DNA of 64,000 nt, taken from the IMG/VR virus record IMGVR_UViG_3300031992_004563, positions 64,001-128,000 of that record; one strand, given 5' to 3'. This DNA is from a virus. Its lineage: Duplodnaviria; Heunggongvirae; Uroviricota; Caudoviricetes. This document shows positions 1 to 19,906 of this stretch, in pieces. Position numbers and translations under genes: made by a program. A model generated the notes under the pieces. It made no database searches. It was not told where the DNA came from and saw only the letters and a program-made list of their open reading frames with translations. Numbering within the stretch: position 1 is the stretch's first letter; the number at the start of each line of letters is the position of its first letter.

Positions 1-114
1 AGTAAGAAGATGCAAATTCCGAACAGTGGCTTGGGGAAATATAATTGCATGTTTATTTCCCTATAATCCAATAGTTGAGAAAACAACTTAAATAAATCAA
101 AGTAAATTTACTTC

Positions 115-196
115 AGCGAGATAGTTTAATATTTGCTACCAGAATACTGTGCACATGACACAGTGGATGTCAGTTGAAGTCTGGCTCTCGCAACCA
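115..196 (+). tRNA. Atypical tRNA-Met(CAT)-like RNA with encoded CCA
   Basis: GCGAGA/TCTCGC acceptor with 1:72 mismatch and ACCA end; CTGTG-CACATGA-CACAG anticodon arm with A33 instead of U33; T-arm GTCAG-TTGAAGT-CTGGC. Confidence 0.6.
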
Positions 197-584
197 ATAG
201 TTGATGTAAACAACTTTAAAAACCAATATTAAACCACGAAAAAGACTAGAGTTACAGCGATTTCCAGTAGCCGAGGACGAAGCCGTGTGGGTCACCATTG
301 AAATCAAGACCTCTTCTAGTGAGAAGGGTGACATTACTCTCTGGAATTTACGAGTAATGGGATGGGCCAAAAACAACACTATGTGGTTTATACTTATAGT
401 TGAAGGAAAACAACTTTAAAAAAGACAATAACCTATGAATAATTAGGTGCGTTAAACCAGCTACACAAATGCTGTATGTGATAGTGATAAAATGCAGCCA
501 TGGAGGCTAACAAAAAGATTGCAAGCTTTTTGAATGCATTAATAACTTCCATGATTAAATAGTTGAAGGACATACAACTTTAAA

Positions 585-671
585 AACCCGTTGGTGTTTC
601 AGCGGATACAAACACACAAAGGGAGCGTCGGCCGAGTCCACAGAGGGTTGAACCCGTAGACCCTCAAACTT
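585..671 (+). ncRNA. Structured RNA, paralog 1
   Basis: Shares AACCCGTTG..ACAAAG..GAGRGTTGA..TAGACYCTCAAACTT layout with 882-1007. Confidence 0.55.
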
Positions 672-881
672 ATAGTTGAGGTACAACAACTGAAAAAACC
701 AATAAAAGTATTATAACTGAAGTTATTTTACTACGTTAACATATCCACAACCGTATATCTTGAAAAATAGTGGTGGTTCACAAAACAAATGTTTATCATT
801 CGAATAATTCATAAGTATCCATGGAAGGCTTATGATGCGGATACTGTTAATATTTTATAGTTGAGGGACAACAACTTACCA

Positions 882-1007
882 AACCCGTTGATGGCTCAGT
901 GCTGGAATATGCGAGTTGGAACCATACAAAGTGCGGTTACGTTACGAGGCACCACGAGAGTTGATTGGGTATCAGGTATTTAACCGTCGGACTAGACTCT
1001 CAAACTT
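882..1007 (+). ncRNA. Structured RNA, paralog 2
   Basis: Same layout as 585-671, with a compensatory stem change GAGGGT/ACCCTC to GAGAGT/ACTCTC. Confidence 0.55.
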
Positions 1008-1103
1008 ATAAAATATCTTATTTAAGGGCTGTCTTAAGGACACTTTGGATAGGGTGGAGAATACATAAAAAGAGTATTCGTATAAAATAAGATATTTTAA
1101 TAT

Positions 1104-1177
1104 TGCCCTGTAGCTCAATTGGCTAGAGCGTCTGATTTTGGTTCAGAAGGTTGGGGATTCGAACTCCTCCAGGGCAA
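1104..1177 (+). tRNA. tRNA-Gln(TTG)
   Basis: Cloverleaf; TCTGA-TTTTGGT-TCAGA anticodon arm. Confidence 0.85.
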
Positions 1178-1184
1178 CATAGTG

Positions 1185-1273
1185 AAATATATAGCTCAAT
1201 GATGGCGCACTAAAACATGTAGAGCACCGGCCAGTTAAGTCGGCGATATGAGGTTTGATTCCCATTATATTTT
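1185..1273 (+). tRNA. Atypical tRNA-Asn(GTT)-like RNA
   Basis: AAATATA/TATATTT acceptor, enlarged D-loop, CCGGC-CAGTTAA-GTCGG arm with A33, weak T-arm. Confidence 0.5.
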
Positions 1274-1344
1274 GAATCGGTCACTGATATTGTCAGGAAG
1301 CAATTTCTGGCTGGGATATAAAAGTATCACACTGATAAACTATT

Positions 1345-1650
1345 TTGAAACTTATATATAAATTATATTATATTAGTAAAACTAAAGAGATAAAGAAAAA
1401 TATAGTTAGACCAAATCTGACTGAATTTAGAGAGTTATATCTTAAGTCATTGGAAGAATTTGAGTTATAGCCAATTTATAAAGATTTGATTGAACTATAT
1501 TATGAATTCAAAAAGTCTAAACTTAAGTATAGACTTTCTATAGACTAGTTTGATCTATAGTTTTCTAGTTTAAACTCATCTAAATCTAATAAGTGCATTT
1601 ATATTTTGATTCTTTTGAATTTTTGTTCTAAAAGTTATAAAATTGTATAA
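1345..1650 (+). CDS. Possible hypothetical protein (TTG start, 3 in-frame TAG)
   Basis: Open for 101 codons only under code 15; no homology recognised. Confidence 0.3.
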
Positions 1651-1753
1651 ATGTTAATAGTTTAAATACCTAATAAACAATATTGCATAAGGATGTTCCT
1701 ATTTTATAATCACAAAGTTTGATTGCAGTTCATACTCCTCGCAATATTTAAAT

Positions 1754-1826
1754 TGGGAGATCAGCTAATCGGTTAGGCTTCATCTCTGATAAGGATGCCA
1801 TCCGGGTTCAAGTCCCGGTCTCCCAA
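1754..1826 (+). tRNA. tRNA-Ile(GAT)
   Basis: TGGGAGA/TCTCCCA acceptor; CATCT-CTGATAA-GGATG; GGTTCAAGTCC T-arm. Confidence 0.85.
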
Positions 1827-1870
1827 CAAATGAAACAATTTAATATATTTGTAATATAATATATAAATAA

Positions 1871-1945
1871 CGGGTAGTAGTTCAGTCCGGTTAGAATGCT
1901 GCATTTGGGATGCAGAGGTCGTGAGTTCGAATCTCGCCTACCCGA
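1871..1945 (+). tRNA. tRNA-Pro(TGG)
   Basis: Cloverleaf; CTGCA-TTTGGGA-TGCAG. Confidence 0.93.
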
Positions 1946-2532
1946 CAAAATAATAATTAAAAATATTGTTTAATGCATTTGGGCGAGAAGCATTGAACGA
2001 TTGATGCTCATCCTGAACAATGGTTTGACTCCAATACGTCCATGCTAAACGGCAATATAAAATAAGGATTTATTATTAAATAATAGAAAATAATAATTCA
2101 ATGTCTCTCATGTTAGGCGATCAGGTACAGAGACGGATGATTATAGATAGTATAATTTGTTAATTAAAAAGTCGGTGCAAATCCGGCGTAAAATTTAAAA
2201 AATAATTTAATTTTTGCACATAGTATTAAATTATAATTTGTTGTTAAATAAAAGTGCAATATAAAAATTAAATTATAATACATAAATTTTAAATAGATTT
2301 AAATGAAATTGAATTATTATTTAAATTTCCAAGTAAATTTAAAAATCGCTAATATGCTCGGATAGGTATAAGCATACATTAATTCGATGGCCAAATGATT
2401 AATTATGAGTTGGTGGGTGATTATATTGAAAATTGCATATTGAAAAGGAGCAAATTTAATAGAGAAATATTATAATTATTTGTTTAATTATAATAGAGTA
2501 GCTCGCAACAATTATTTTCCGAATTTTTAAAT

Positions 2533-2675
2533 GGCCCATTCGTCTATCGGCTAGGACGCCAGATTTACGTTGGAAAGAAAACCATACTATTAAAAACTCC
2601 AGTTTGGAATATAATATTTGATTATATTATATTTCACTCATTCTGGAAAGAGCAGTTCGATTCTGCTATGGGCTA
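2533..2675 (+). tRNA. tRNA-Glu with 71-nt insertion in the anticodon loop (CTC or TTC)
   Basis: 5' half GGCCCAT..CCAGATT and 3' half (C)TCATTCTGG..ATGGGCTA flank an insert at about 2566-2637; the anticodon arm matches the neighbouring intact tRNA-Glu. Confidence 0.85.
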
Positions 2676-2699
2676 CTTTACAATTAAAATTAAAAATAT

Positions 2700-2778
2700 G
2701 GATCATTCGAATATCGGTTAGTTCGCCAGATTTTCATTCTGGAAAGGTTTTAGGGTTCGACTCCCACATGATCTACCA
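2700..2778 (+). tRNA. tRNA-Glu(TTC)
   Basis: CCAGA-TTTTCAT-TCTGG; encoded CCA; imperfect T-stem. Confidence 0.8.
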
Positions 2779-2897
2779 AATTAAACTTGCAATCCAACGA
2801 TTACTATATGTAAGTTCGGGATTTGGATGGGCACTACCAAACGGACCGAGAACCGCGTGCATTCGAGATTGGTGACGGTGTGGAGAGACACACTCTT

Positions 2898-2972
2898 GGT
2901 CCGGTAGCTCAGTGGTGTAGTAGCAGGACACTCATAATGTCAAGGTCGGGGGTTCAAATCCCTCTCGGACCA
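2898..2972 (+). tRNA. tRNA-Met/Ile2(CAT)
   Basis: Cloverleaf; GACA-CTCATAA-TGTC. Confidence 0.85.
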
Positions 2973-3309
2973 CGTGAAAAACCGTAGTGTATACTTTATA
3001 TGTTTCACCAAAATGCGGTAACCTCCATATGCCGGCAAACATAAAATATGGCAAGGACAAAGTGAAAACGTATTTTCAGAAAAAAGTTGAAATTATATAC
3101 TGAATGTAATAGAGTCTGGTCATGGCCTGACATTTTGTAGGAGAGTTAACTATTCTGCAAGGTCATATGGAATCAACCCAGTGAAAGACTACGTATATAT
3201 CTCATGAGATTTCAACTTCATTATGGTGCTCTTCTAGAGAGCATGCGGGACAGCGACGTGGCAACCGCAGTGGAAGATTCTCTTCTCCAATAAATACTAG
3301 GCGTCTCCA

Positions 3310-3341
3310 ATAGTTGAAATATGGATAACAACTATAAAACC
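3310..3341 (+). repeat. Seventh copy of the ATAGTTGA..CAACT hairpin motif
   Basis: ATAGTTGAAATATGGATAACAACTATAAAACC, directly after TCTCCA and just before a tRNA-Met. Confidence 0.75.
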
Positions 3342-3350
3342 ATATAATAT

Positions 3351-3422
3351 AGCGGGGTAGAGCAGTGGTAGCTCGTCAGGCTCATAACCTGAAGGCCGGG
3401 GGTTCGAATCCCTCCCCCGCAA
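3351..3422 (+). tRNA. tRNA-Met(CAT), initiator-like
   Basis: 1:72 mismatch, GCGGGG/CCCCGC acceptor, TCAGG-CTCATAA-CCTGA. Confidence 0.9.
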
Positions 3423-3529
3423 CAGAGGCCCATGTCTGAAATGGCTTGCAGGTTCGAGTCCTGTCTTTGGTGTTTCATCATTTTATGGTGTTCCTACCGA
3501 GGTGGCGAAAGTGGTAAACGCGTGGGTAA
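3423..3529 (+). tRNA. Circularly permuted tRNA-Leu-type gene (3' half 3423-3472, 5' half 3496-3529)
   Basis: Long variable arm, GGTTCGAGTCC T-arm and CTTTGGT come before ACCGAGG-TGGCGAAAGTGGTAAACGCG; acceptor strands and TGGGT/GCCCA anticodon stem pair across the halves. Confidence 0.75.
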
Positions 3530-3736
3530 GATTGTTGTTGGCTATAACAACATTAAACAAATATAGCAACTTTAACTAATATATTATGTTAGACACTAAT
3601 TATATTCCTTAAATGAAAAGTAAAGTATTGAGTAATAGAATACATGAGGGTTCGTACCCTGGAGTAGAAATCGACCAAGAAATGCATATAATTATATGGG
3701 TGCAACTCCCATAATAATATTTTAGTTAATCATATT

Positions 3737-3811
3737 GGTATCATCGTTCAACGGCTAGGATGCAACACTGTCACTGTTGTGATGCGGGTTCGATTCCCGC
3801 TGGTACCGCCA
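3737..3811 (+). tRNA. tRNA-Asp(GTC)
   Basis: CAACA-CTGTCAC-TGTTG; encoded CCA. Confidence 0.93.
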
Positions 3812-3848
3812 ATTTAGGTTAAGTCCAAAGATATCCAGGTAGTTTGTA

Positions 3849-4121
3849 AGGATTAAAGAATAGAACTTTAAACACTTCGCTAATATGCTTTTGAGGGAGC
3901 ACATGGAATATCGAATTGTTACCGGCGTAACATGAACCGGGAGTCGTAAGGAACATAGTCCGAAGTCAACAAAATGAGAATTTGATGCGTAAGCCAGGTG
4001 TGCGACGAACTGGACATCGCCTCTCAATAACGCAAACTGGACAAGTGTAACCAGATAGCTGTCGTATATTAGTCTATTCAATGGTATACGTCTCAGAGCA
4101 CTTCGGCGGACCTCTAATCCT
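3849..4121 (+). ncRNA. Candidate ~270-nt structured RNA
   Basis: GC-enriched, non-coding, closed by AGGATTA/TAATCCT. Confidence 0.4.
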
Positions 4122-4554
4122 AAATTTTTAATTTAAACATAAATTTGTAAATCAAATCCTGGGTTAATCGCCGGGTTGACGGTTCGGAAAAAAGACGAAC
4201 TAGGCATGCAATACTGCTAAGAGAAACTTTTTGTATTGCGCGGACTTTGGTGGTTGAAGCGCAGAATGCAGATATTGATTAACTGAAAACCATCTTTTGG
4301 ATATATGTTATTGGTTTAACATATATTCACTCTAAAGCAACACGCATTATCAATTAAGTAGGTTGCTCCATATTAAGTGAAAGTAATAGTTGACTACTAT
4401 ATGATAACTTAAAGAAGAGTTGAAGTGGTACATAGACTAATTAGGGCTAAATAAATTGGTTGACGAGATAAAATGGGAACTAGTCATTCCCATTCTCGAA
4501 AAAGTTAATTCTTTAAGAATTTTTGGAAAACTTTAAAAACGAAAAATTCACCGA

Positions 4555-4629
4555 GGGCCCTTCATATAGTCTGGTTTAGTATGTCAGCTCTGCAAGCTGA
4601 TCACGCCGGTTCGAATCCGGCAGGGTCCA
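4555..4629 (+). tRNA. tRNA-Ala(TGC)
   Basis: G3:U70 pair in GGGCCCT/AGGGTCC; loop TCTGCAA (C33). Confidence 0.75.
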
Positions 4630-5376
4630 CTGATTTTCAATAAGTAACAGAAACGAGGTTGAGGTATAGATGATGGGAAAATATGACAGAGACTAAACAG
4701 AGACGACTTATTGAAACAACACTATAATATCTAATATTCAGTGGGGAGTAGGCTTGACCGAAATTAAAACATCTGACCCATGTTGGTAGTTAGATATTTG
4801 AAATAACGTACGAAAAAGATGAAACAAACTCCACCGTTTCATACATTGGGAGATGATCTTTTGGTGTTGTGGAAGCCTGCAATGGTGTAAGAAAATCGCA
4901 ATGGTTTATCCATATTATAACGTGTAATATGGGATTTAAATTCCACCAATTTTTGAATTATAATTAAATGCGTAGAACGATCAATAAAATGCGACATACG
5001 AAAGTCACATGGGATAAATGGAATTTGCTATTATACCGCAATTCATAAGTATGTTCACTGTGGAGAATCGGGAATCAGTGGTTTAATTATTTACACTTGG
5101 AGATTACGTATCAATATAGGTGTGTATATTTTAAAAGTGACGGTCGGGGTGAAAATCCAAGCGAGTTTAAACGGGAAGGAAGAGAGAAAATTTATCAAGT
5201 CATATGCTCCTGATAAATATACGGCTTTTAAAATAAATTATATCCTGTATGGGTTCTATACACCGAGCACTTATAATCCTCGTCATTATATACTGCTCGT
5301 TAAAATTATTTGGTTTATAGCACTAGTCTTGATTTTTCTTAAATAAATATAATATAAAATACATTTATTAGTTAAT

Positions 5377-6093
5377 ATGTTATATTGTAAATATTGTGGC
5401 AAAGAATGTAAAAATTTAAATTCATTAAGACAGCATGAGATTAGGTGTAAACAAAATCCTAATAGAATTAAAATGGATTTATCAAAATGGAAGTGCCCAC
5501 CAGAAAAAAGAAAATTAGGAACAAAAAATAAAGTTGCTTTAACTAATGGAAATAAAAACAAATATCTATTTCCTAATGAAGCAGAAGAATTTTTACAAAA
5601 TAATTTAGATTGGCATAAAGGATTTACAATTATAAATCATGGTCCAAATTTAGGAATTGCATCCACTCCTGAAAAAGAGGCTGAGAGAAAAAGAAAAATT
5701 TCAGAAACAATGAAGAAAAATCCATTAGCTGGTGGTAGAAGAATAGGTAGTGGACGAGGAAAACAAGGATGGTATAAAGGAATTTATTGTGATAGTTCTT
5801 GGGAACTTGCATTTTTGGTATATTATTTAGATCATAATAAAAATATAAAGAGATGTGAAGAACGAAGAGAATATATTTTTAATAATGAAAAACATACTTA
5901 TATTCCTGATTTTATAACAGATGATGGTATTATAGAAATAAAGGGATATAAAACACAACAATGGAAATCCAAATTAGAACAAAATCCTGATATAAAAGTT
6001 TTATATGAAGATGATATTAAACCATATTTAGATTATGCAACATCATTATATGGCCAGTATTATTGGGAAGTTCTATATGAAAATAAAAAATAA
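5377..6093 (+). CDS. Free-standing homing-endonuclease-like protein (Zn finger, NUMOD3-like, PD-(D/E)XK)
   Basis: CKYC..HEIRC, KRKISETMK, DSSWE, YIPDF..IEIKG motifs; located inside the tRNA array. Confidence 0.75.
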   Translation: MLYCKYCGKECKNLNSLRQHEIRCKQNPNRIKMDLSKWKCPPEKRKLGTKNKVALTNGNKNKYLFPNEAEEFLQNNLDWHKGFTIINHGPNLGIASTPEKEAERKRKISETMKKNPLAGGRRIGSGRGKQGWYKGIYCDSSWELAFLVYYLDHNKNIKRCEERREYIFNNEKHTYIPDFITDDGIIEIKGYKTQQWKSKLEQNPDIKVLYEDDIKPYLDYATSLYGQYYWEVLYENKK

Positions 6094-6097
6094 GTTT

Positions 6098-6182
6098 GGA
6101 GGCATGCCGAAGTGGTCATAACGGCACTGACTTGAAATCAGCTGTGGCTCACGCCCCGGGGGTTCGAATCCCTCTGCCTCCG
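6098..6182 (+). tRNA. tRNA-Ser(TGA)
   Basis: Long variable arm; CTGA-CTTGAAA-TCAG. Confidence 0.92.
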
Positions 6183-6311
6183 CCGTTAAATATAAACCTG
6201 CATAGTAAAGTTCCTATTATAGGTTCGATTCCTAAAATTACTGGATGGTTATTACTTTCCGCGGGTTTAACTTATAATAAAATGCATAAAGTTGTTCCTA
6301 TTTAGTTTATT

Positions 6312-6399
6312 GAAAAGCAGGAAGTCGGGGGTTCGAGTCCCTCTCTCCACACAAATAATATAAAATGTGGAGATAACTCAGATGGTAGAGTGCCCGCCT
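6312..6399 (+). tRNA. Circularly permuted tRNA-Phe(GAA) (3' half 6312-6351, 5' half 6367-6399)
   Basis: GAAAAGCAGG..GGTTCGAGTCC..TCTCCACA precedes GTGGAGATAACTCAGATGGTAGAGTGCCCGCCT; joining gives a perfect GTGGAGA/TCTCCAC acceptor and loop CT-GAA-AA. Confidence 0.85.
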
Positions 6400-6459
6400 A
6401 AACATACACTTCGCGTTTTATCCCCCTTATAATAGTTTGAACATTGCTATTTAAATAAT

Positions 6460-6643
6460 GTTACGCCTTACCCGGTTTAAGTTGAAAGAGTGCCCGGGCT
6501 GTAGATCTAAAAGCCAAAAGCTAATCTATAAAAAACTTATCGCTCCATTTGCACTTGGAAGGTTGAGTGCAATTTTTAATATATCATTACTGAGGTGGAT
6601 AGGAGAAGCATATAAAACCCGAATCCTGAGGAAATGGCGTAAC
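6460..6643 (+). ncRNA. Candidate structured RNA
   Basis: Closed by GTTACGCC/GGCGTAAC; internal hairpin TTGCACTT..GAGTGCAA. Confidence 0.4.
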
Positions 6644-6995
6644 GACAAAAAGTTAGAAGGGCCGAAGAAACCGTCGTTGCTTGATATACGGTGTGGAAAG
6701 GCGTGGTAAGTAATGATTATTTTTATAATTCTCAAACCTTGTGGGTGCCAGAAAACACCACATGCAGAAAGTATTTAATATTGCTAGCGATTAAAGAAAT
6801 TTGGTTCGTTATTGAGAATTTTTTCTTTAATAAACATTATCGAATCCATTTAAGTAATATTCGATATAACTGAGAATAATTACATTAATATTAAATGGCG
6901 TTGCTACTCATCTGGTATGGAGGCATACTGAGTACCTTGGTCTATTACGAGAAGATAGGCCGGTGTTTAAATTTAAGATAATGTTTATTTTTAAT

Positions 6996-7078
6996 GGGAG
7001 AGTTCCTAATGCGGTAATTAGGACCAGACTGTAAATCTGGCGGCTTAGCCTTCGGGGGTTCGAATCCCTCCTCTCCCA
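6996..7078 (+). tRNA. tRNA-Tyr(GTA)
   Basis: CCAGA-CTGTAAA-TCTGG; long variable arm. Confidence 0.92.
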
Positions 7079-7099
7079 CAGTTTTTAATAAACTTATAT

Positions 7100-7174
7100 G
7101 GTGTCCGTAGCTCAATTGGTAGAGTGCTGGATTGTGGTTCCAGTGGTTCTCGGATCATACCCGAGCGGGCACCC
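7100..7174 (+). tRNA. tRNA-His(GTG)
   Basis: G-1; CTGGA-TTGTGGT-TCCAG. Confidence 0.9.
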
Positions 7175-7307
7175 CTACTTAGGATGTACACCAGGCAGAC
7201 TGTTGAGTCATATAAACAGTATAATCCTATTTTGAATGTTGGTTTTAGAGTGAGGGGTTCTGAAAGACTTAAAGAGAACTCACCTACTGGATGCATACAG
7301 TGATTAT

Positions 7308-7375
7308 CGCCACGGGAATCGTAGTTGATTTTTAGAGCCCTTAGCTAAGGTGTCGGAGCGTTACCGGCCGTGGTG
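7308..7375 (+). ncRNA. Anticodon-less tRNA-like RNA
   Basis: CGCCACG/CGTGGTG acceptor and T-arm GTCGG-AGCGTTA-CCGGC; anticodon arm replaced by CCTT-AGCT-AAGG. Confidence 0.5.
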
Positions 7376-7387
7376 TCAAAATTACAT

Positions 7388-7469
7388 GGGCTTATGGCGT
7401 AATAGCGAGCCGCGCCAGACTTAGGATCTGGTTCCGAAAGGAGTAAGGGTTGGAGTCCCTTTAAGCCCA
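7388..7469 (+). tRNA. tRNA-Leu(TAG)
   Basis: CCAGA-CTTAGGA-TCTGG; long variable arm. Confidence 0.9.
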
Positions 7470-7483
7470 CATTTAAAAAGAAT

Positions 7484-7677
7484 AATCATTCGATATTTTT
7501 ATGATGTTATATTAAGGGTTCAAATCCCAATTGGGGGCTTGTCGACGAACAAGATATGTATCTTATATAGCTATACTCAAAGTCCCTCGCATTTTTCGAG
7601 TGTTATATAAGTAAGGTCGGACATTATAAAGAAATTGTTAAAACCGTGGAGAGGTGCACATCAAAACGTGAATGATT
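7484..7677 (+). ncRNA. Candidate structured RNA with a T-loop-like hairpin
   Basis: Closed by AATCATTC/GAATGATT; contains GGGTTCAAATCCC. Confidence 0.35.
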
Positions 7678-7680
7678 AAT

Positions 7681-7756
7681 GGTCCTTTAGCTCAGCTGGT
7701 ATTAGAGCACTTGGCTTACATCCAAGGGGTCGTAGGTTCGAATCCTACAGGGACCA
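7681..7756 (+). tRNA. tRNA-Val(TAC)
   Basis: CTTGG-CTTACAT-CCAAG. Confidence 0.93.
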
Positions 7757-7850
7757 CAATAAGAATAAGAAAAAATAAAGGATTCCAAACAGTTATTCAA
7801 AGTATCTTTTCTTTTTATGTTGTTTTTCTTGGTTCTAACTTTGAATATTT

Positions 7851-7921
7851 GCAGGTATAGCACAACAGTCGTGCACCAGTTTGCCATACTGGGGATCCCG
7901 GGGCAGCACCGGGTATCTGCT
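7851..7921 (+). tRNA. tRNA-Gly(GCC)
   Basis: CCAGT-TTGCCAT-ACTGG; atypical T-loop. Confidence 0.8.
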
Positions 7922-8035
7922 CAACATTGCAGGTTCTTATTAGAATGAAAGTCTGGAAAATCCAGTGCTAATAAGGTGAAATTAAAATTGTAAGAGACTG
8001 CAAAGGGGTTGAATAATGTGGTCAACCCATAAAAA

Positions 8036-8111
8036 CTAGGTGTAGAGGAGCCCGGTTTATCTCGCGTGAATTGGAATCACGAGCACGCAGGTTCGAATCC
8101 TGCCATCTAGA
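8036..8111 (+). tRNA. tRNA-Pro(TGG), second copy
   Basis: CGTGA-ATTGGAA-TCACG; CTAGGTG/CATCTAG acceptor. Confidence 0.85.
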
Positions 8112-8114
8112 CTT

Positions 8115-8319
8115 CGCGAATTAGTGTAATATGTGCCCGTAAAATTTCAGATGTACGGTTAACACAACGGCCAATGTTAATTAGTCTGAATGGTGTTCCT
8201 TTAGTATGAAATGTATATACAATGTACAGTGTGTATACAAAGTAAGAAACAGGTTGGGAGGATCAGAGCACGGCACCCGGAGATGGTGTTAGTTACGTGG
8301 AAGTCGTAGTTCGCAACCA
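8115..8319 (+). ncRNA. Enlarged tRNA-like RNA ending in ACCA
   Basis: C-GCGAAT/GTTCGC-A-ACCA acceptor, D-stem GTGT/ACAC, T-arm TACG-TGGAAGT-CGTA; about 125 nt in place of the anticodon arm. Confidence 0.5.
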
Positions 8320-8793
8320 ATAAATTAATATTCGAGGGTCTACGAGTGAATTAACACGGAGAGCCAAACCAAAAACAACCGAGTAGGTTTGGAGAGAGTA
8401 GAGATGGTGTGGCGTAAGTGGACAGGTTGTAGTTTGTGATATGCCTAGAAGTGGTGGCCTGCTGGAAAATGGTGGCATGTAGAATATTGATTTTTAATTT
8501 TTTAATGTGAAGGATAACACAATAAAACCCTTGTTGCTAACATTCTTGGGCAGGTAATGAAAATGGCTAGGTGTATGACCGGTGACTTGGTGAAATTCCA
8601 ACATTCCTAGTGAAGAAAAATGATTCGCGGTTAATTTTTCTTAAAGGTCATTTTTAAATATAATCACGATACTAAGACGCGTACCGACGGGTCAGTTCCA
8701 GTATTCTGGTATAAAACTCTCATATATGTCCAAATATATTTTGGTGCACCTGAAGTTGGATGAAGAGAGGAACATTAGTATGTGTGGTTTTTT

Positions 8794-8865
8794 GCCCCGG
8801 TGGTGAAATGCATATCACGAGTGACTACGGATCACTTATTCTGGGTTGGAATCCCAGCTGGGGTA
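8794..8865 (+). tRNA. tRNA-Arg(ACG)
   Basis: AGTGA-CTACGGA-TCACT. Confidence 0.9.
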
Positions 8866-8925
8866 CTATAGAAACAAAGTTCATTTAGAGCCTATAATAA
8901 TTAAAATAATAAAACTATATTATAT

Positions 8926-9471
8926 ATGAGAATCGATTCATTAGAAAGCATCTGGAATAACTTGGGGTATGTTATTCAGAAACATAATGATTATAAAAAG
9001 ACTAAGAGAAATCTTAGAAAGCTGGTTTATAATTGTTCTCCAAAACATATGAAAGATGGTTCAATAAAAAACACTTTTATTGAAGTTGGATATCTTTATT
9101 TAACAAGTGCTGTTAAAGATGATTCTCAAGGTTTTGTATGGTTTGATTGTACTGATCATATTAATTATGATGAAGAACATAGAATTATATTCCCAACAAT
9201 GCCTGCACAATTTTGGGATAAATTAGTTGGAAAGCATAATACTAATATTGCTCAACTTTATAATGATAAAACAAAAGAATATTTGCATAAAGATTCTAAT
9301 ATAGAATGGAATATTGTAAAGGGCCAAGCATTATTTACTACAAGGCAAGAAGCAGAGGATTATATTAAACAATGTGAAAATGGTGAAATTGAGCTTCCTG
9401 AATTCTTTTTAAAAGTTGAAAGAGTTATGACTAATCCAACACGAGAAGATTATGAGAACATTGGAAAATAA
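8926..9471 (+). CDS. Hypothetical protein
   Basis: 181-aa ORF with phage-like composition. Confidence 0.8.
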   Translation: MRIDSLESIWNNLGYVIQKHNDYKKTKRNLRKLVYNCSPKHMKDGSIKNTFIEVGYLYLTSAVKDDSQGFVWFDCTDHINYDEEHRIIFPTMPAQFWDKLVGKHNTNIAQLYNDKTKEYLHKDSNIEWNIVKGQALFTTRQEAEDYIKQCENGEIELPEFFLKVERVMTNPTREDYENIGK

Positions 9472-9483
9472 ACAACAATAATT

Positions 9484-9723
9484 ATGGAACTTAAAGATAT
9501 TGTAAAAGGCCAAGCCGATTTATCTTGTGTAATTGCAGGAGGAATTGCTGAATATATTTTAACAGATATAAATGGAATCAAATATCAATTGCAAATTAAT
9601 TTGGCAGATAAACATGATGTTGGTGAAACTGCTACATTCCAAACACATTATGATAAAGCAATTATTTTAATGAGATGGATTCGTAGAGCAATTGAAAAAG
9701 ATGAATTAATTAAACTTAATTAA
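9484..9723 (+). CDS. Hypothetical protein
   Basis: 79-aa ORF in tandem with the previous gene. Confidence 0.75.
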   Translation: MELKDIVKGQADLSCVIAGGIAEYILTDINGIKYQLQINLADKHDVGETATFQTHYDKAIILMRWIRRAIEKDELIKLN

Positions 9724-9731
9724 TAATTCTT

Positions 9732-9804
9732 GAGCCGGTAGCTCAGATGGTAGAGCAGCAGACTCTTAATCTGCGGGCCGTGGGTTCGAGTCCCACCCGG
9801 CTCA
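9732..9804 (+). tRNA. tRNA-Lys(CTT)
   Basis: GCAGA-CTCTTAA-TCTGC. Confidence 0.95.
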
Positions 9805-9809
9805 CAAAT

Positions 9810-9883
9810 GGCGAGGTAGCTCAGTTGGTTAGAGCGCAGCATTCATAATGCTGAGGTCGTGGGATCGTGACCCTCCCTCGCTA
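9810..9883 (+). tRNA. tRNA-Met(CAT)
   Basis: CAGCA-TTCATAA-TGCTG. Confidence 0.88.
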
Positions 9884-9890
9884 CATAAAT

Positions 9891-9964
9891 ATCCTATTAG
9901 CCCAATCGGTAGAGGCAATAGTTTCAAAAACTATACAGTGTTGGTTCGAATCCAACATGGGATA
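9891..9964 (+). tRNA. tRNA-Leu(CAA), short variable arm
   Basis: ATAGT-TTCAAAA-ACTAT; GGTTCGAATCC T-arm. Confidence 0.8.
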
Positions 9965-10032
9965 CAAAAGATAAATGACATTTATGGTTATTGCACATCC
10001 AAAAAGCATGTATAAAAATAAAAATAAATGTT

Positions 10033-10359
10033 ATGAAGAAGATTTTTTTAATTATGTGTCTTCTATCATCATTTATCTTTTGTAATGCCGAACCTTCGTA
10101 TGAAAGTTCAACAAAAAAGGCAAAAGAATCACGCATAGAAGTGGTGAATGAGAAGACAGTTATTTTCAAAAATGTCGTAAAAATAGAAATAATTACTAAA
10201 GATAAAAATCAAATAACATATGTATATGATTTGAAAAACAGTAAATTAGTAATTGTTGCTAAAGGTGCATTTGAGATTGATACAAAAATGGGTGATTATT
10301 TAGTTCAATCTTCTAAGAAAATAACAAAAACCGAATATGATTTTATTGAAGAAATTTAA
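10033..10359 (+). CDS. Hypothetical protein with signal peptide
   Basis: MKKIFLIMCLLSSFIFCNA N-terminus. Confidence 0.7.
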   Translation: MKKIFLIMCLLSSFIFCNAEPSYESSTKKAKESRIEVVNEKTVIFKNVVKIEIITKDKNQITYVYDLKNSKLVIVAKGAFEIDTKMGDYLVQSSKKITKTEYDFIEEI

Positions 10360-10582
10360 TCATATTTATTTATGTTAAATATAATTAAATATATTTATGA
10401 ATAATTATATTTTTATATTTAACAAAATTTTTGAAATAAATATAAAAAGAAAATAATTTTTAAGAGGTGGTATCCTTAAAAACTATTTTTAGAAATATAA
10501 GTTATAATTATAAAGCATTTTAATGTTTTATTATACAAGATACCACTTTTAAGTATAATAATCATTTTAATGCTTTTATTTT

Positions 10583-11785
10583 ATGAAGTTAGTTGAACAA
10601 CATATTATAAAATCTAATCATTAGTTTTACAAAGAACTTGATAATTTATGCTTTTTATCTAAGAATCTATATAATCAAGCTCTTTATAGGATTAGACAAT
10701 AGTTTTTTGAAGATAAAACTTTTAAAAATTATTATGATTTAAATAGAGAGCTTCATGATGAAAACTAGATAGACTATAGATCACTTCCATCTAATACATC
10801 ACAAGAAACATTAAAACTAGTTAACCAAAATTATAAATCATTTTTCTAGAGTTTAAACAAACAAATTAAAGGCGTTAAAATTCCTAAATATTTAGATAAA
10901 ATTAAAGGAAGATAGATAGTTGTTTATAATTATTCAACAATATGTGGAAAAAAAGATTTAGGATTTTTTAAAATTCCAAAAACTAATTTACAATTTAAAA
11001 CTAAATAGAAAAATATTAAGCAAGTTAGAATAGTTCCTAAAAATAATTATATAGTTTTAGAAGTTATTTATGAAGCTTCTATCAAAGAATTATTAAAAGA
11101 TAATAAAAGATATATGTCTATTGATTTAGGAATTGATAATTTAGCTAGTTGTTCTAGTAATGTAACTAAATCTTTTATAATCAATGGAAAACCTGCCAAA
11201 TCAATAAATCAATATTATAATAAAAAGAAAGCTAATCTTCAATCTGAATTAAAACTTAAACAAAATAAAAATACATCAAAGCAAATATAGAATTTAACTT
11301 TAAAGAGAAACAATAAAATAAAAGATTATTTTCATAAAGCATCCAGATATATTGTTAATCAATTAGTTAACCAATCCATTAATACACTTATAATAGGAAA
11401 GAATGATGGATGGAAACAAGAGACAAATCTAGGTGTTGTTAATAATCAAAATTTTGTAAATATTCCTCATTAGATGTTTATAAATCAACTAAAATATAAA
11501 TGTCAATTAGAAGGAATAAATGTCATTGAACAAGAAGAAAGTTATACTAGCAAAGTAAGTTTTTTTGATAATGACTATATTCCAACTTATAAACAAAATG
11601 ATGAACTATTTAATCCATCTGGAAAAAGAATCAAAAGAGGTTTATATAAAACTAAAAATAATTTATTAATTAATGCTGATATAAATGGTTCATTAAACAT
11701 AATGAGAAAATATTTAAATGTAGTTTGTGATGACTTAATTAGTTTAACAAATAGAGGGTTTGTGATTAATCCAGTTAAAATTTAG
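10583..11785 (+). mobile_element. tnpB: IS200/IS605-family TnpB RNA-guided nuclease, 400 aa under code 15
   Basis: MKLVEQHIIK..SKNLYNQALY, SIDLGIDNL (RuvC-I), QEESYTS, NADINGSLNI; about 8 in-frame TAG; no tnpA; inverted repeat GTGGTATC/GATACCAC upstream. Confidence 0.9.
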
Positions 11786-11854
11786 TTTTAACAAATAAAA
11801 ACTTGTGAATAGTTTTTAATATCATTTGATTCCAAATGTATCAGAAATTTATAA

Positions 11855-12028
11855 GAATTTATGCAGTCCATCGCGCCCATTCCAAAAGATATAAGAGGTG
11901 AGGAAGTTCAGGACACTTATTTGGAAGTGAAAGTCTAAGTATAGGAGGTTACCCAAATTACTGCCCCATGGTAAGACGAATAGTTAAATGATGGAAATAG
12001 GTACAGAATCCTGGCTATTACATAATTC
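11855..12028 (+). ncRNA. rnpB: Minimal RNase P RNA
   Basis: GAGGAAGTTCAGGA (11900) and ACAGAATCCTGGCT (12003) match CR-I/CR-V and form P4 with a bulged U; termini GAATT(T)ATG/CATAATTC pair as P1. Confidence 0.8.
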
Positions 12029-12197
12029 ATATATTTAATAAAAATAAATGTTTAATAATTATGATACCAACATTAACAGTTTACATGCTAATTGCTATAC
12101 CTATTATCTATATAGCAATTAAAAAATAAATAAAATGGTGTTATAATTAAAATTTACAACACCATTTATTTTTATTTAAAATTAAAACCTAAACACA

Positions 12198-12596
12198 ATG
12201 AATTACAACATTCAAGAAAAGAAACACTATTTCATTGTAAATGGCGTTAAAGTTCATTGGAATTTTAAATTATTGCCTAAAGGTTTTGAAGCAATAACAT
12301 TATTTGGGCATGTTTATGATGTTCATCCAAAAAATGAATTAAAAACATTTTTAGAAACCTATTGGGGAAGAGTAATGGTTAATCATGAAAGAATTCATAT
12401 AATGCAAGCCGAATCTTTTAAACTTAGATATTTTGCATTTTATATAATATATCTATGGTGGTGGATAAAAGGTTTGTTTAAATATAATTTTAGTAATTTT
12501 GAATCATACTATAAAATTCCATTTGAAAGAGAAGCTTATCATAATGAAAAAGATTTTTATTATGATGAAGTACATTGGAAAGAATTTAAATGGTGA
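12198..12596 (+). CDS. Hypothetical protein with HExxH motif
   Basis: NHERIH..IPFEREAY. Confidence 0.75.
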   Translation: MNYNIQEKKHYFIVNGVKVHWNFKLLPKGFEAITLFGHVYDVHPKNELKTFLETYWGRVMVNHERIHIMQAESFKLRYFAFYIIYLWWWIKGLFKYNFSNFESYYKIPFEREAYHNEKDFYYDEVHWKEFKW

Positions 12597-12640
12597 TTTT
12601 TGTAATGGTCTTTACAAAAATGATCATTTATTTTTTATTT

Positions 12641-12715
12641 GCGGGTGTAGCTCAGTTAGCTTAGAGCGTCTGACTTCCAATCAGAAGGCCCTGGGTTGAA
12701 GTCCCAGTACCCGCA
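12641..12715 (+). tRNA. tRNA-Gly(TCC)
   Basis: TCTGA-CTTCCAA-TCAGA. Confidence 0.92.
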
Positions 12716-12800
12716 CGAATGTTAAGGTAGCGCCTTAACTAGTTGCAGTTATGAGATCGCGGAATCTGCAATGAATAAAAATAATAAAAGCCGCGTACAT

Positions 12801-12886
12801 GTCTCCGTAGCTCAGTTGGTTCCGCAAGGCTTGAGAGCACCCGCCTTTTAAGCGGGGGGTCGTGGGTTCGAATCCCACCGGGGACA
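12801..12886 (+). tRNA. tRNA-Lys(TTT) with enlarged D-loop
   Basis: CCCGC-CTTTTAA-GCGGG; D-loop carries a CC-GCAA-GG mini-hairpin. Confidence 0.88.
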
Positions 12887-13142
12887 CAAAAATCCAATTT
12901 AATTTGGTTGACTAAATTTCAATAAGAAATTCGCTACAAACACATAGCGTTACGATTGCTGTTTGACTTGAATATTCAAAACGAATATTAGATTTGTTAA
13001 TTAGATTAAATTAACACTATTTAGGACTATATTAGATTGCTATGAAAAATGAGTGATTCTAATGATATGGCGAGGAGTCCTTCACGAGGTCAGTGTTTTA
13101 GAGCCATATCTTATTTTTAATCTCAATACGCAAGTATATGAA

Positions 13143-13175
13143 AAAGGAGACTGGAATGAGTCTCCTTTATTTTTT
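13143..13175 (+). terminator. Intrinsic terminator
   Basis: AAAGGAGACT-GGAATG-AGTCTCCTTT then a T-run. Confidence 0.75.
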
Positions 13176-13189
13176 ATTTTTATTAAATT

Positions 13190-13240
13190 AACTTCTATTT
13201 TTTAGATTACATAAAAAATTATAATTTTGTATCGTTAATT
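13190..13240 (+). promoter_or_regulatory. Class 1 promoter (AACTTCTATTTTTTAG..TAATTTTG)
   Basis: Recurs at about 18766, 28379, 30038 and 61534; TAnnTTTG is the Bacteroidetes -7 element. Confidence 0.75.
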
Positions 13241-13257
13241 TAAAAAAGATAAAAATT

Positions 13258-14100
13258 ATGGCATTTATCAAAAATGAAAGTCCAAAAATTGGCGATTGGG
13301 TAATCACACAGAAATCACACTCTGCATGTGCTGGTACAATGACTAAAGGCAGTCGTGTAAAAATCACTGACGTTGATCCAATGAGAGGTTATTCAATTGT
13401 TGATGAGGAAGGAAATCGTCTTTGTGAAATTGGGTGGATAATTTAAAACATAAAATTATGGAAGGTTGGTTAGCACGAGATAAATCTGGTTCTTTATGTT
13501 TTTATATATATGAACCATATAAGTCAGCTGCTGGTTTTTGGAAGCCAGTTGAGGATGAACCATTAGGAAACCAAGTAGATGAATGTGAAGCATCTAAAAA
13601 TATTAAATGGGAAGATAATCGAGCCACTCATGTAAAAGTTAATTTTGAAATTTTGTAATAATATGAAAACATCTATTAGAAAAAATGCATATGCTGTTCC
13701 AAGTGGAAGTTGGGATATCGCTGAACGAGTTCATGTTTCCGGAAAACATGGACGTGATAGAAAACAACATTATCTTTCCAAACAAGCGCGTTTGGCTGTT
13801 AAAAATGGAAAGGTTGATGGTGTTGATCTTAAAAATATTGAGGAGTAAATAACTACAAAATAAATTTTAAAAATGGATTCAAAACGACAACAAGAAATTA
13901 AAAATGAAATGGCAGGCCGAATAATTGATGCCTGTGGTAGCACCGGGGTTTTAGCGGCAGTGGATAACGATAAACTGGAAGGCGATGTTAAAGTTCGTCA
14001 TCAGAAAGCTATGGCAGAAGCTAAAAAGCTTACCGGTCGAAAGAAACGAATTGATCCTAATGTTCAAGCAATATTTGCACGAATGTATGGATTAATTTAA
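13258..14100 (+). CDS. Four small hypothetical genes (13258-13446, ~13458-13658, ~13663-13848, 13873-14100)
   Basis: Tightly packed ORFs after a class 1 promoter. Confidence 0.7.
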
Positions 14101-18830: not shown

Positions 18831-19232
18831 ATGAAGTTAGGTTATGTGTATCATGATGGTGGCCGTTCTAATTACTTCAAGGCCGGTAATGTTGGGGATT
18901 GTGTAATTAGAGCGCTTGCTATAATTAAAGGAATGAATTACAAAGAGGTATATGATACTGTTAAAAGTATCATTGGAGAAAGTCCACGCAATGGTGTTCC
19001 ACGTAAAAAATTGCAAAATGTTATGAAACATTTTGGTGGTGTATGGGTACCATTATCTGGAATAGGCACAGGTTGTAAAGCACATTTGGCTGCATATGAA
19101 ATTCCAATGTCAGGAAAAATCATATGTAATGTTAGTAAACATGTAACAGCTGTTATTGATGGAGTAAATTATGATACATATGATTCCAGCCGAAATGGAA
19201 CACGATGTGTATATGGATATTGGAAATTTTAA
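18831..19232 (+). CDS. Conserved phage protein (possible Cys-His peptidase fold)
   Basis: GDCVIRALA..HVTAVIDG..YDTYD. Confidence 0.75.
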   Translation: MKLGYVYHDGGRSNYFKAGNVGDCVIRALAIIKGMNYKEVYDTVKSIIGESPRNGVPRKKLQNVMKHFGGVWVPLSGIGTGCKAHLAAYEIPMSGKIICNVSKHVTAVIDGVNYDTYDSSRNGTRCVYGYWKF

Positions 19233-19243
19233 ATAATAAATTT

Positions 19244-19906
19244 ATGAATAATGAACGAATAAAATATCCTAGAACATTTCATTTGCCTTATTCACAATCA
19301 AAGACAGATGATGATAAGACATTGCCAAATGATGATCAATTCAAAGGAATGGAAGTCGTGGTAACAATCAAGATGGATGGTGAAAATACAACTGTCTATC
19401 CTGATGGTTATATTCATGCTCGTTCTCTTGATGGAACTGGCTATACATGGCAAAATTGGTTGAAGTCATATGTTTGGGAATTTTGTGGCGCACTTGCAGA
19501 TGATGAACGAATAATTGGTGAAAACTTGTATGCAAAACATTCAATTGGTTATAAGTTCAATGATATAAAAGATACATTCCAGGTATTTGCAATGTGTTTT
19601 AATTTTGATGGTGTTGATTATTTCTATGATTGGGACTATATTGAAATGTTTTGTGAAGGTTATGGATTAAAACATGTTGATGTAATATATAGAGGTATTT
19701 ATGATAAAGAAAAAATCATGGAGGCCTTTGAAAATAAGAAAAAAGAACTAGCAGAACAAGGACAAGATATTGAAGGTTTTGTTGTTCGTGATGCTTATGA
19801 ATTTCCAACAAGTGAATTTCAAAAACACGTTGCAAAGTTTGTTCGCGCAAATCATGTTCAAACTGATAAACATTGGAGAGAAACTTGGACTAAAAATGAA
19901 TTTTAA
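19244..19906 (+). CDS. ATP-dependent RNA ligase family protein
   Basis: KYPRTFHLP, KMDGEN (motif I), GENLYAKHSI, EGFVVR, AKFVRANHVQTD. Confidence 0.88.
   Translation: MNNERIKYPRTFHLPYSQSKTDDDKTLPNDDQFKGMEVVVTIKMDGENTTVYPDGYIHARSLDGTGYTWQNWLKSYVWEFCGALADDERIIGENLYAKHSIGYKFNDIKDTFQVFAMCFNFDGVDYFYDWDYIEMFCEGYGLKHVDVIYRGIYDKEKIMEAFENKKKELAEQGQDIEGFVVRDAYEFPTSEFQKHVAKFVRANHVQTDKHWRETWTKNEF

Follow-up and report, generated by a model that had tools for sequence, protein, structure and literature searches.

A tRNA cluster of a phage genome contains, next to a tRNA-fMet gene, a circularly permuted gene that is conserved, descends from tRNA-Leu(GAG) and is built from the signals of Lak-type tRNA introns. 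The reading favoured here, tentatively, is that its RNA is processed, ligated into a ring and not used for decoding. The window, meaning the whole 64,000-nucleotide stretch of DNA analysed, corresponds to C1:64001-128000 of a single virus genome of 380,519 bases (G000, estimated to be 76% complete) and has a base composition of 28% G+C. The phage uses genetic code 15, with TAG read as Gln; open-frame cover is 0.88 with this assignment versus 0.72 with table 11, and Gln is the commonest residue opposite TAG (18 alignment columns). It should also be noted that 682 in-frame TAG codons occur in long ORFs of the genome, yet no tRNA with a CUA anticodon was predicted by ARAGORN in the 76%-complete record, and that the phage encodes a separate tmRNA. 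The best-matching sequencing runs carry the label sheep gut, and the host is probably a member of the Bacteroidota, judging from the likeness of the phage to Lak phages.

Structure and authenticity of the permuted element

The element sits in a tRNA cluster (21 ARAGORN genes within the window). Its parts, and the features that bear on its processing, are as follows:

3351..3423, + strand: tRNA-fMet (67 bits), with A73 (3422) and C74 (3423) encoded; putative source of the 5' cut of the 3' half
3424..3472, + strand: 3' half, positions 35-38 through G73
3424-3427, + strand: A35-G36-A37-G38, start of the 3' half
3428-3432, + strand: anticodon-stem 3' strand, in the 3' half
3433-3447, + strand: long variable arm, in the 3' half
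3448-3464, + strand: T arm, in the 3' half
3465-3471, + strand: acceptor 3' strand, followed by G73 at 3472, the end of the 3' half
3473..3495, + strand: linker hairpin (23 nt, 6 bp) closing the acceptor end, its first base being U74, not C74
3496..3530, + strand: 5' half, with acceptor 5' strand, Leu-type D arm, anticodon-stem 5' strand and A32-A33-G34; the end at 3530 is predicted
3531..3554, + strand: hairpin, then A-rich tract, the build of a Lak-type intron 5' end; putative 3' cut signal
3572..3729, + strand: large tRNA-like fold with a long closing stem and a T-arm-like hairpin at 3695-3713
19205..19906, + strand: RNA ligase gene (PF09414, E 1.3e-22); candidate trans-acting ligase

The initial annotation had described, at 3423..3535 and abutting tRNA-fMet, a variable arm, T arm and acceptor 3' strand ahead of a Leu-like 5' half, with both stems pairing across the halves and a small hairpin as the 23-nt linker. 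The parts were all found where they had been placed, pairing between the halves is complete in the acceptor stem (7/7) and the anticodon stem (5/5), and the 6-bp linker hairpin at 3473-3495 is more stable than most shuffled versions (z -2.15; 7 of 200 shuffles equally good). The adjacency to tRNA-fMet also held, but the start shifts to 3424, as C3423 most likely belongs to tRNA-fMet. The consensus bases U8, G18G19, R15:Y48 and U54U55C56 are kept. With the 3' half upstream and the intervening sequence at the acceptor ends, the layout is that of permuted tRNA genes, and reassembly yields a cloverleaf supported by cross-half pairing and covariation. The order of the parts, this pairing and the conservation in relatives bear out the annotation as a Leu-type permuted tRNA gene. 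The global fold of the precursor was no better than that of shuffled sequences (z -0.73; z -1.63), and no sigma-70-like promoter could be placed at 3424.

In its genomic order the element is called neither by ARAGORN nor by the Rfam tRNA model. The prospect, raised with the initial annotation, that rejoined forms might score as non-tRNA was not borne out, since 18 of 18 swapped-order forms (three genomes with six junctions each) were called as tRNA by ARAGORN at its default threshold; because all of them were called, ARAGORN is unable to pick the junction. When halves of intact phage tRNAs with mismatched anticodons were combined, none of the 9378 pairings reached 7/7 plus 5/5, compared with 72 of 99 for halves of the same tRNA. 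A detector for permuted genes returned two candidates in the 380-kb genome, the Leu element and a Phe case at 6311-6400, and none in 40 Markov-shuffled 35-kb regions; a looser initial version gave one additional AT-rich junk match.

It is well known that tRNA arrays are prone to misassembly, and the many further tRNA-like fragments around the element would be in keeping with an assembly artefact or with two unrelated halves lying side by side by chance. However, one contig of DNA run X1, which may be the source sample, spans 3367-3926 with 0 differences to the window, the same order with other linkers in independent records excludes misassembly, and no pairing of unrelated halves fitted equally well. 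Chance and misassembly are ruled out, and such an origin is given practically no weight. The initial annotation had considered both less likely on account of a second independent case; the exclusion stands on the other evidence, and the argument itself is weaker than supposed, the Phe case being built differently.

This permuted tRNA-Phe (window 6278-6420) and a permuted tRNA-Pro in a relative (L118:7295-7435, - strand) both have a 15-nt linker, A73-C74, flanks paired as an outer stem, which is long in the Phe case, and a 3' piece holding the whole canonical anticodon loop, compatible with a break at 31/32. They score 26.8 (Phe) and 38.2 bits (Pro) with the YrlA model, and both are built unlike the Leu element. 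The permuted Pro lies in one of a number of long-stem elements of L118 (- strand, reverse-complement ~9640-13370), which have a common short 5' motif and anticodon-loop-like sequences; no Rfam family was found for these elements at gathering score.

Copies in related phages

Full copies of the element were found in contigs L001 and L015 and in a contig of run X6, the protein encoded beside it in L001 being 76% identical to that of the phage. The linker has a length of 23 nt in the window, 83 nt in L001 and L015 and ~82 in run X6. Identity to the window amounts to 40/49 (L001) and 41/49 (L015) in the 3' half and to 30/35 and 31/35 in the 5' half. L001 differs at 14 of 84 bases, ten in stems and four at variable loop positions, with none of the 23 pairs broken (p about 0.006) and with double changes in two acceptor pairs whose partners lie in different halves; when its changes were placed at random, both features arose in 0.02% of 200,000 trials. 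L015 shows 12 differences and one broken pair, an A1-A72 mismatch. Relatives lacking cross-half covariation had been named as evidence against the annotation, and the two acceptor pairs changed on both sides run counter to this. The column-shuffle control for covariation on three sequences was not significant (39/500), and the double changes reflect one lineage split, since they are common to L001 and L015.

Downstream of the 5' half, eight pairs of the hairpin at 3531..3554 are kept in 3/3 sequences, and 7 of the 54 predicted pairs of the fold at 3572..3729 change on both sides (three sequences), with no Rfam family assigned to this fold at gathering score. Between copies, 189/200 and 170/200 bases of the downstream unit are identical (85-95%), compared with 82-89% for the halves.

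Several relatives carry the element in part or in altered form. G002 holds the 3' half alone, with a T loop damaged by a change at C56, and run X5 has the downstream unit alone, with similarity starting at 3531 behind an ordinary tRNA. In L001 a 298-aa ORF without a Pfam match runs into the 3' half and the upstream tRNA fold is absent. For L126 a 24-nt match was returned. An intact-order homologue in G001 reads A32-U33-GAG-A37, with similar variable and T arms and an abnormal acceptor end, and gave the best 3'-half score (63; none of 89 Leu genes, mostly bacterial, exceeded 53).

Elsewhere the element is sparse. A DNA search matched two of five related records; with the detector, L117, L119, L120 and L121, as well as 50 kb each of Lak-A1 and Lak-B1, gave no permuted gene, and L118 gave the permuted Pro. 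BLAST against GenBank phages gave no record covering the Leu element, with the Phe case uncovered at 80%, and run X24 had no piece on the element among the matches listed. Pattern searches of viral contigs returned 0 matches in some cases; elsewhere one match of 11 and one of two were the L001 contig and the others were unrelated, and a further search gave two matches, both already-known copies.

A number of other unusual RNA features were observed. A Leu(CAA)-anticodon tRNA with a short variable arm (window 9891-9965) has a near-identical counterpart at L001:12750-12824. Some tRNA genes carry D-loop inserts or nested tRNA-like inserts (window 1185-1273, 8140-8320 and 12803-12887; G000 C1:46438-46961), and three on the - strand of L117 have inserts of 230-445 nt which by eye resemble group I introns. 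A conserved structured RNA of ~320 nt (window 3815-4135; counterparts L015:2450-2765 and L124:1708-2040) has 7 of 80 pairs with both sides changed and no Rfam matches at E up to 1; a joint from 3981 to 4092 within it is present in both RNA runs and absent from DNA run X1.

Intron boundary signals and predicted processing

Many tRNA genes of this phage group have an anticodon-loop insert in which a small hairpin is followed by an A-rich tract and then by a tRNA-like fold, a build shared by the Lak introns in Table S6 of Devoto (2019), as far as that table presents them (PMC6784885). An intron-less Asn(GTT) allele in L118 uniquely fixes the 3' boundary of the intron in L001 and L120, which falls after N73-C74 of the nested fold. 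When this C74 rule was applied by eye to 13 hand-picked intron genes, a 7-nt loop with Y32-U33 was obtained in 13/13, which is not an unbiased count because eight other ARAGORN intron calls were left out (G000 C1:46781, four in L117, two in L118 and one in L121). The set came from 14 candidates (11 hand-picked and three Lak-A1 ARAGORN calls), one Lak-A1 call without the build being dropped. In 11 of the 13 genes the hairpin loop of the intron lies 6-8 nt from the intron start, the remaining two being ambiguous; two of the 13 require an acceptor of 8 bp, and one is a minihelix of 12 bp. Lak-type introns are predicted to be removed by cutting and ligation. A skip of the Glu intron, seen in RNA run X4, does not count as proof of splicing, since DNA run X1 shows it as well.

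Further observations were made on inserts of this kind. An intron of 71-72 nt is nearly identical in tRNA-Glu (window 2533-2677) and in a Gln(TTG)-type tRNA (L120:11306-11449), which suggests that introns move between tRNA genes. The Lak intron gene that carries the annotation Tyr(GTA) (L122:29707-29922; L123; Devoto Table S6) would read Asn(GTT) after splicing by the C74 rule. Arrays of repeated hairpins alternating with tRNA-like or structured units, some without an anticodon arm, occur at window 60-900, L001:4400-5500 and in L118, and resemble chained intron units.

The element carries both Lak-type intron signals, in reverse order. Its 3' half stands directly behind a tRNA or tRNA-like fold ending in N73-C74 in four of five copies (window, X6, L015 and L124), the exception being L001, which is without the upstream fold and has T at the register of the tRNA-fMet C74. 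The upstream folds represent three different sequences, each ending in C74 at the same register, and C74 is encoded in 29/29 intact + strand tRNAs of G000 (one unassigned call excluded). At the other end, 3/3 full copies and run X6 have the hairpin, A-rich tract and tRNA-like fold downstream of the 5' half, as is expected after a Lak-type 5' exon. With four bases given by the 3' rule and three by the 7-nt distance, a 7-nt loop with the anticodon GAG results; the register of the hairpin also permits a 6-nt distance and hence an 8-nt loop. The 7-nt loop agrees with Lak-type excision in length but reads A32-A33 in place of Y32-U33.

A junction at 34/35 with the anticodon GAG is predicted from these rules. 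The initial annotation had left the anticodon ambiguous between CAG and GAG, of which GAG is favoured by the boundary rules and the intact homologue. CAG (junction 33/34) was disfavoured, as its C is the C74 of the upstream fold in four of five copies and T in the fifth, and as the intact homologue reads GAG. CAG retains some probability, as three of the 96 loci listed are intact Leu(CAG) genes that also have the U31-G39 pair of the element. A micro-exon supplying C32-U33 beyond the downstream unit was also considered and rejected, conserved sequence being absent there.

The reversed signals allow exact cut sites to be predicted, after 3423 and after 3530, together with a 107-nt circle. It is likely that the ancestral tRNA-Leu(GAG) once carried a Lak-type intron; the permuted order could then have arisen when a gene with such an intron was duplicated in tandem and the outer exons were lost. 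It is likewise likely that the two cuts predicted for introns release the element from a longer transcript of the tRNA cluster, with the cut after C74 of tRNA-fMet giving a 5' end at 3424 and that 7 nt ahead of the hairpin loop giving a 3' end at 3530. The anticodon stem would keep both ends together for joining, and the released RNA is likely closed into a ring by the predicted intron-removal route, the putative intron ligase (PF09414 ligase of the phage or host RtcB) producing the circle. Its loop would be of 7 nt and all purine (A32, A33, GAG, A37, G38), and the linker may be retained or opened by host RNase P.

The RNA data available were two metatranscriptome runs of one sample (X3 and X4), examined as assembled contigs of non-small-RNA libraries without a silent-stretch control. 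In X3 and X4, RNA contigs that match the window exactly have their first base at 3424 and 3425, respectively, without overhanging letters. DNA contigs of X1 and X6 extend across this start point, and both RNA contigs continue uncut through 3531. No back-spliced joint was present among the joints listed for the assembled X3 and X4 contigs (15 of 18 in one comparison), and in the other run comparison the single joint was the longer linker of X6. Because the contigs are assembled and a silent-stretch control is lacking, the RNA starts are a weak hint of the 5' cut, and the missing joint is weak as well. Small or modified RNAs are likely to be under-represented in data of this type.

The PF09414 ligase is a candidate for joining the ends of the element, and a nucleotidyltransferase of the CCA/poly(A)-polymerase family is encoded elsewhere in the phage genome. 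Searches of the 76%-complete record turned up no RtcB, RNase Z-like fold, splicing endonuclease, Ro60 or RNase P RNA, PF01974 (tRNA splicing endonuclease) being among the families absent; the control genome, that of Bacteroides thetaiotaomicron, gave RtcB, TROVE and RNase P RNA matches, and the PF09511 search was run without a positive control. No BHB was seen at the junction, where the upstream flank varies among copies and conserved pairing by eye is at most 3 bp, and Rfam matches included no group I or II intron family (E up to 10 for 3400-3760; E up to 1 for 1-12000).

Nature of the product and comparison with known systems

Several bases of the element are abnormal for a decoding tRNA. 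A33 is present in every 7-nt rejoining, compared with 1 of 99 intact phage tRNAs, and G73 and U74 occur in 3/3 copies, compared with A73 in 4/4 ordinary Leu genes. A73 is the leucine identity base. The ordinary consensus bases, U33 included, and the normal identity set of a permuted tRNA are therefore departed from at A33 and G73. The need for an extra Leu tRNA is also small, because CUC and CUG are rare (each ~1.4 per 1000 codons in the phage) and Leu(AAG) and Leu(TAG) are already encoded. A Ser-type recoding of CUG/CUC by a long-arm tRNA with G73 was rejected, relatives having L seven times, I twice and S never at nine CTG/CTC columns, a small sample drawn from 32 protein alignments.

G73, U74 and A33 would result in poor charging and poor decoding, so that the ring may serve as a tRNA mimic or decoy, and these bases, the L001 ORF and the rarity of CUC/CUG place a non-decoding product above a working tRNA. 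On the sequence evidence a tRNA mimic is the more likely of the two; no target or partner for one was identified. A true permuted tRNA, ligated back at 34/35, matured by RNase P and 3' trimming and supplied with CCA to give a working, if weak, tRNA-Leu(GAG), is a possibility of limited weight. It agrees with the 7-bp acceptor, the U at -1, the cross-half covariation and the invariant D- and T-loop bases, as well as with the CCA-type nucleotidyltransferase and RNA ligase of the phage and with the failure of ARAGORN to find an intact gene for Leu(GAG) or Leu(CAG) in its genome, but fits poorly with A33, G73, U74, the A1-A72 mismatch, the little need and the lack of a junction in RNA contigs of one sample.

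The patchy spread described above, from the lone 3' half of G002 and lone downstream unit of X5 to the ORF in place of the signal in L001 and the relatives negative in the detector, could instead point to a decaying remnant with old compensatory changes, persisting passively or as processing punctuation between tRNAs. The non-standard bases and the fact that the halves are not better conserved than the downstream unit are in line with this, whereas the absence of any broken pair over the 14 changes in L001 is not. Moreover, the odd bases are not scattered but recur in every full copy, and the acceptor end of the intact homologue is abnormal too; decay is considered unlikely. A YrlA-like Y RNA, unligated, with a T-acceptor-D module mimicking tRNA and paired ends binding Ro60, is much less probable still. 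The order of T, acceptor-stem-loop and D is the same as far as YrlA is described in Chen (2014; PMC4201824), a weak full-length match to RF02553 was obtained (19.4 bits, E 0.12), and a TROVE gene is present in the Bacteroides control genome. The match falls far below the gathering cut-off of 69, however, the GNCGAA motif is absent, and no long end-to-end stem is conserved, given an upstream flank that changes from copy to copy; no TROVE gene was found in the 76%-complete phage record, and the 5-bp anticodon stem and anticodon remnants are retained.

There is a modest chance that the phage matures tRNA-Leu(GAG) by back-splicing in a bacterial cell, the signals being the 3' end of a neighbouring tRNA and an intron hairpin. 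This would represent a permuted tRNA pathway that works with neither a BHB nor a splicing endonuclease, and the element would be a minimal natural substrate exposing the Lak-type intron machinery. If the product is instead a mimic, it would be a new type of tRNA-derived, possibly circular RNA in phage biology. A splicing-endonuclease route for permuted tRNAs is not known from bacteria. Among the titles and abstract openings searched (subscription journals and bioRxiv supplements lie outside this scope), none reported a permuted tRNA gene from a phage or from bacteria; in the searched literature such genes are confined to algae and one archaeon and are handled by a splicing endonuclease.

The 34 permuted tRNA genes covered by the relevant part of the review by Soma (2014; PMC3978253) are all algal or archaeal, those of Thermofilum pendens included. 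As described there, they share with the element a 3' half placed first, an intervening sequence at the acceptor ends, a class II (Leu) body and a CCA that is not encoded (PMC3978253). They differ in that the element is carried by a phage of bacteria, has a predicted 34/35 junction in place of types I-V, is without an evident BHB, U33 or phage splicing endonuclease, and has a linker of up to 83 nt compared with the 1-74 given for known genes (PMC3978253). A circle and a mature tRNA belong to the known genes, as portrayed in the same review, while the circle of the element is a prediction. The two-piece (permuted) tmRNA outlined by Soma (2014; PMC3978253) is also encoded by a permuted gene with a linker at the acceptor end. 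Unlike it, the element has no G3-U70 pair, and no tmRNA family match was obtained on the + strand. The G3-U70 pair is the alanine identity pair.

With YrlA (RF02553) the element shares the T, acceptor-stem-loop and D order and a 7-bp acceptor which, going by the portion of PMC4201824 that deals with it, could be cut by RNase P. It has neither a Ro60-binding stem or motif nor a neighbouring Ro60 gene, reaches 19.4 of 69 bits, and keeps an anticodon stem, a long variable arm and Leu(GAG) ancestry. In build, the element also resembles the 'enigmatic' tRNA introns of Lak megaphages, which, in the sections of PMC6784885 that treat them, likewise join a hairpin to an A-rich tract and a tRNA-like fold in a code-15 phage; the word stem 'permut-' does not occur in the main text or three supplements of that paper (Devoto, 2019). 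Unlike in the Lak introns, no exon comes after the unit that trails the 5' half of the element, and the 3' exon is found on the upstream side, after a real tRNA. The Lak-type boundary signals are thus reversed in the element, with a real tRNA taking the place of the intron's tRNA-like end.
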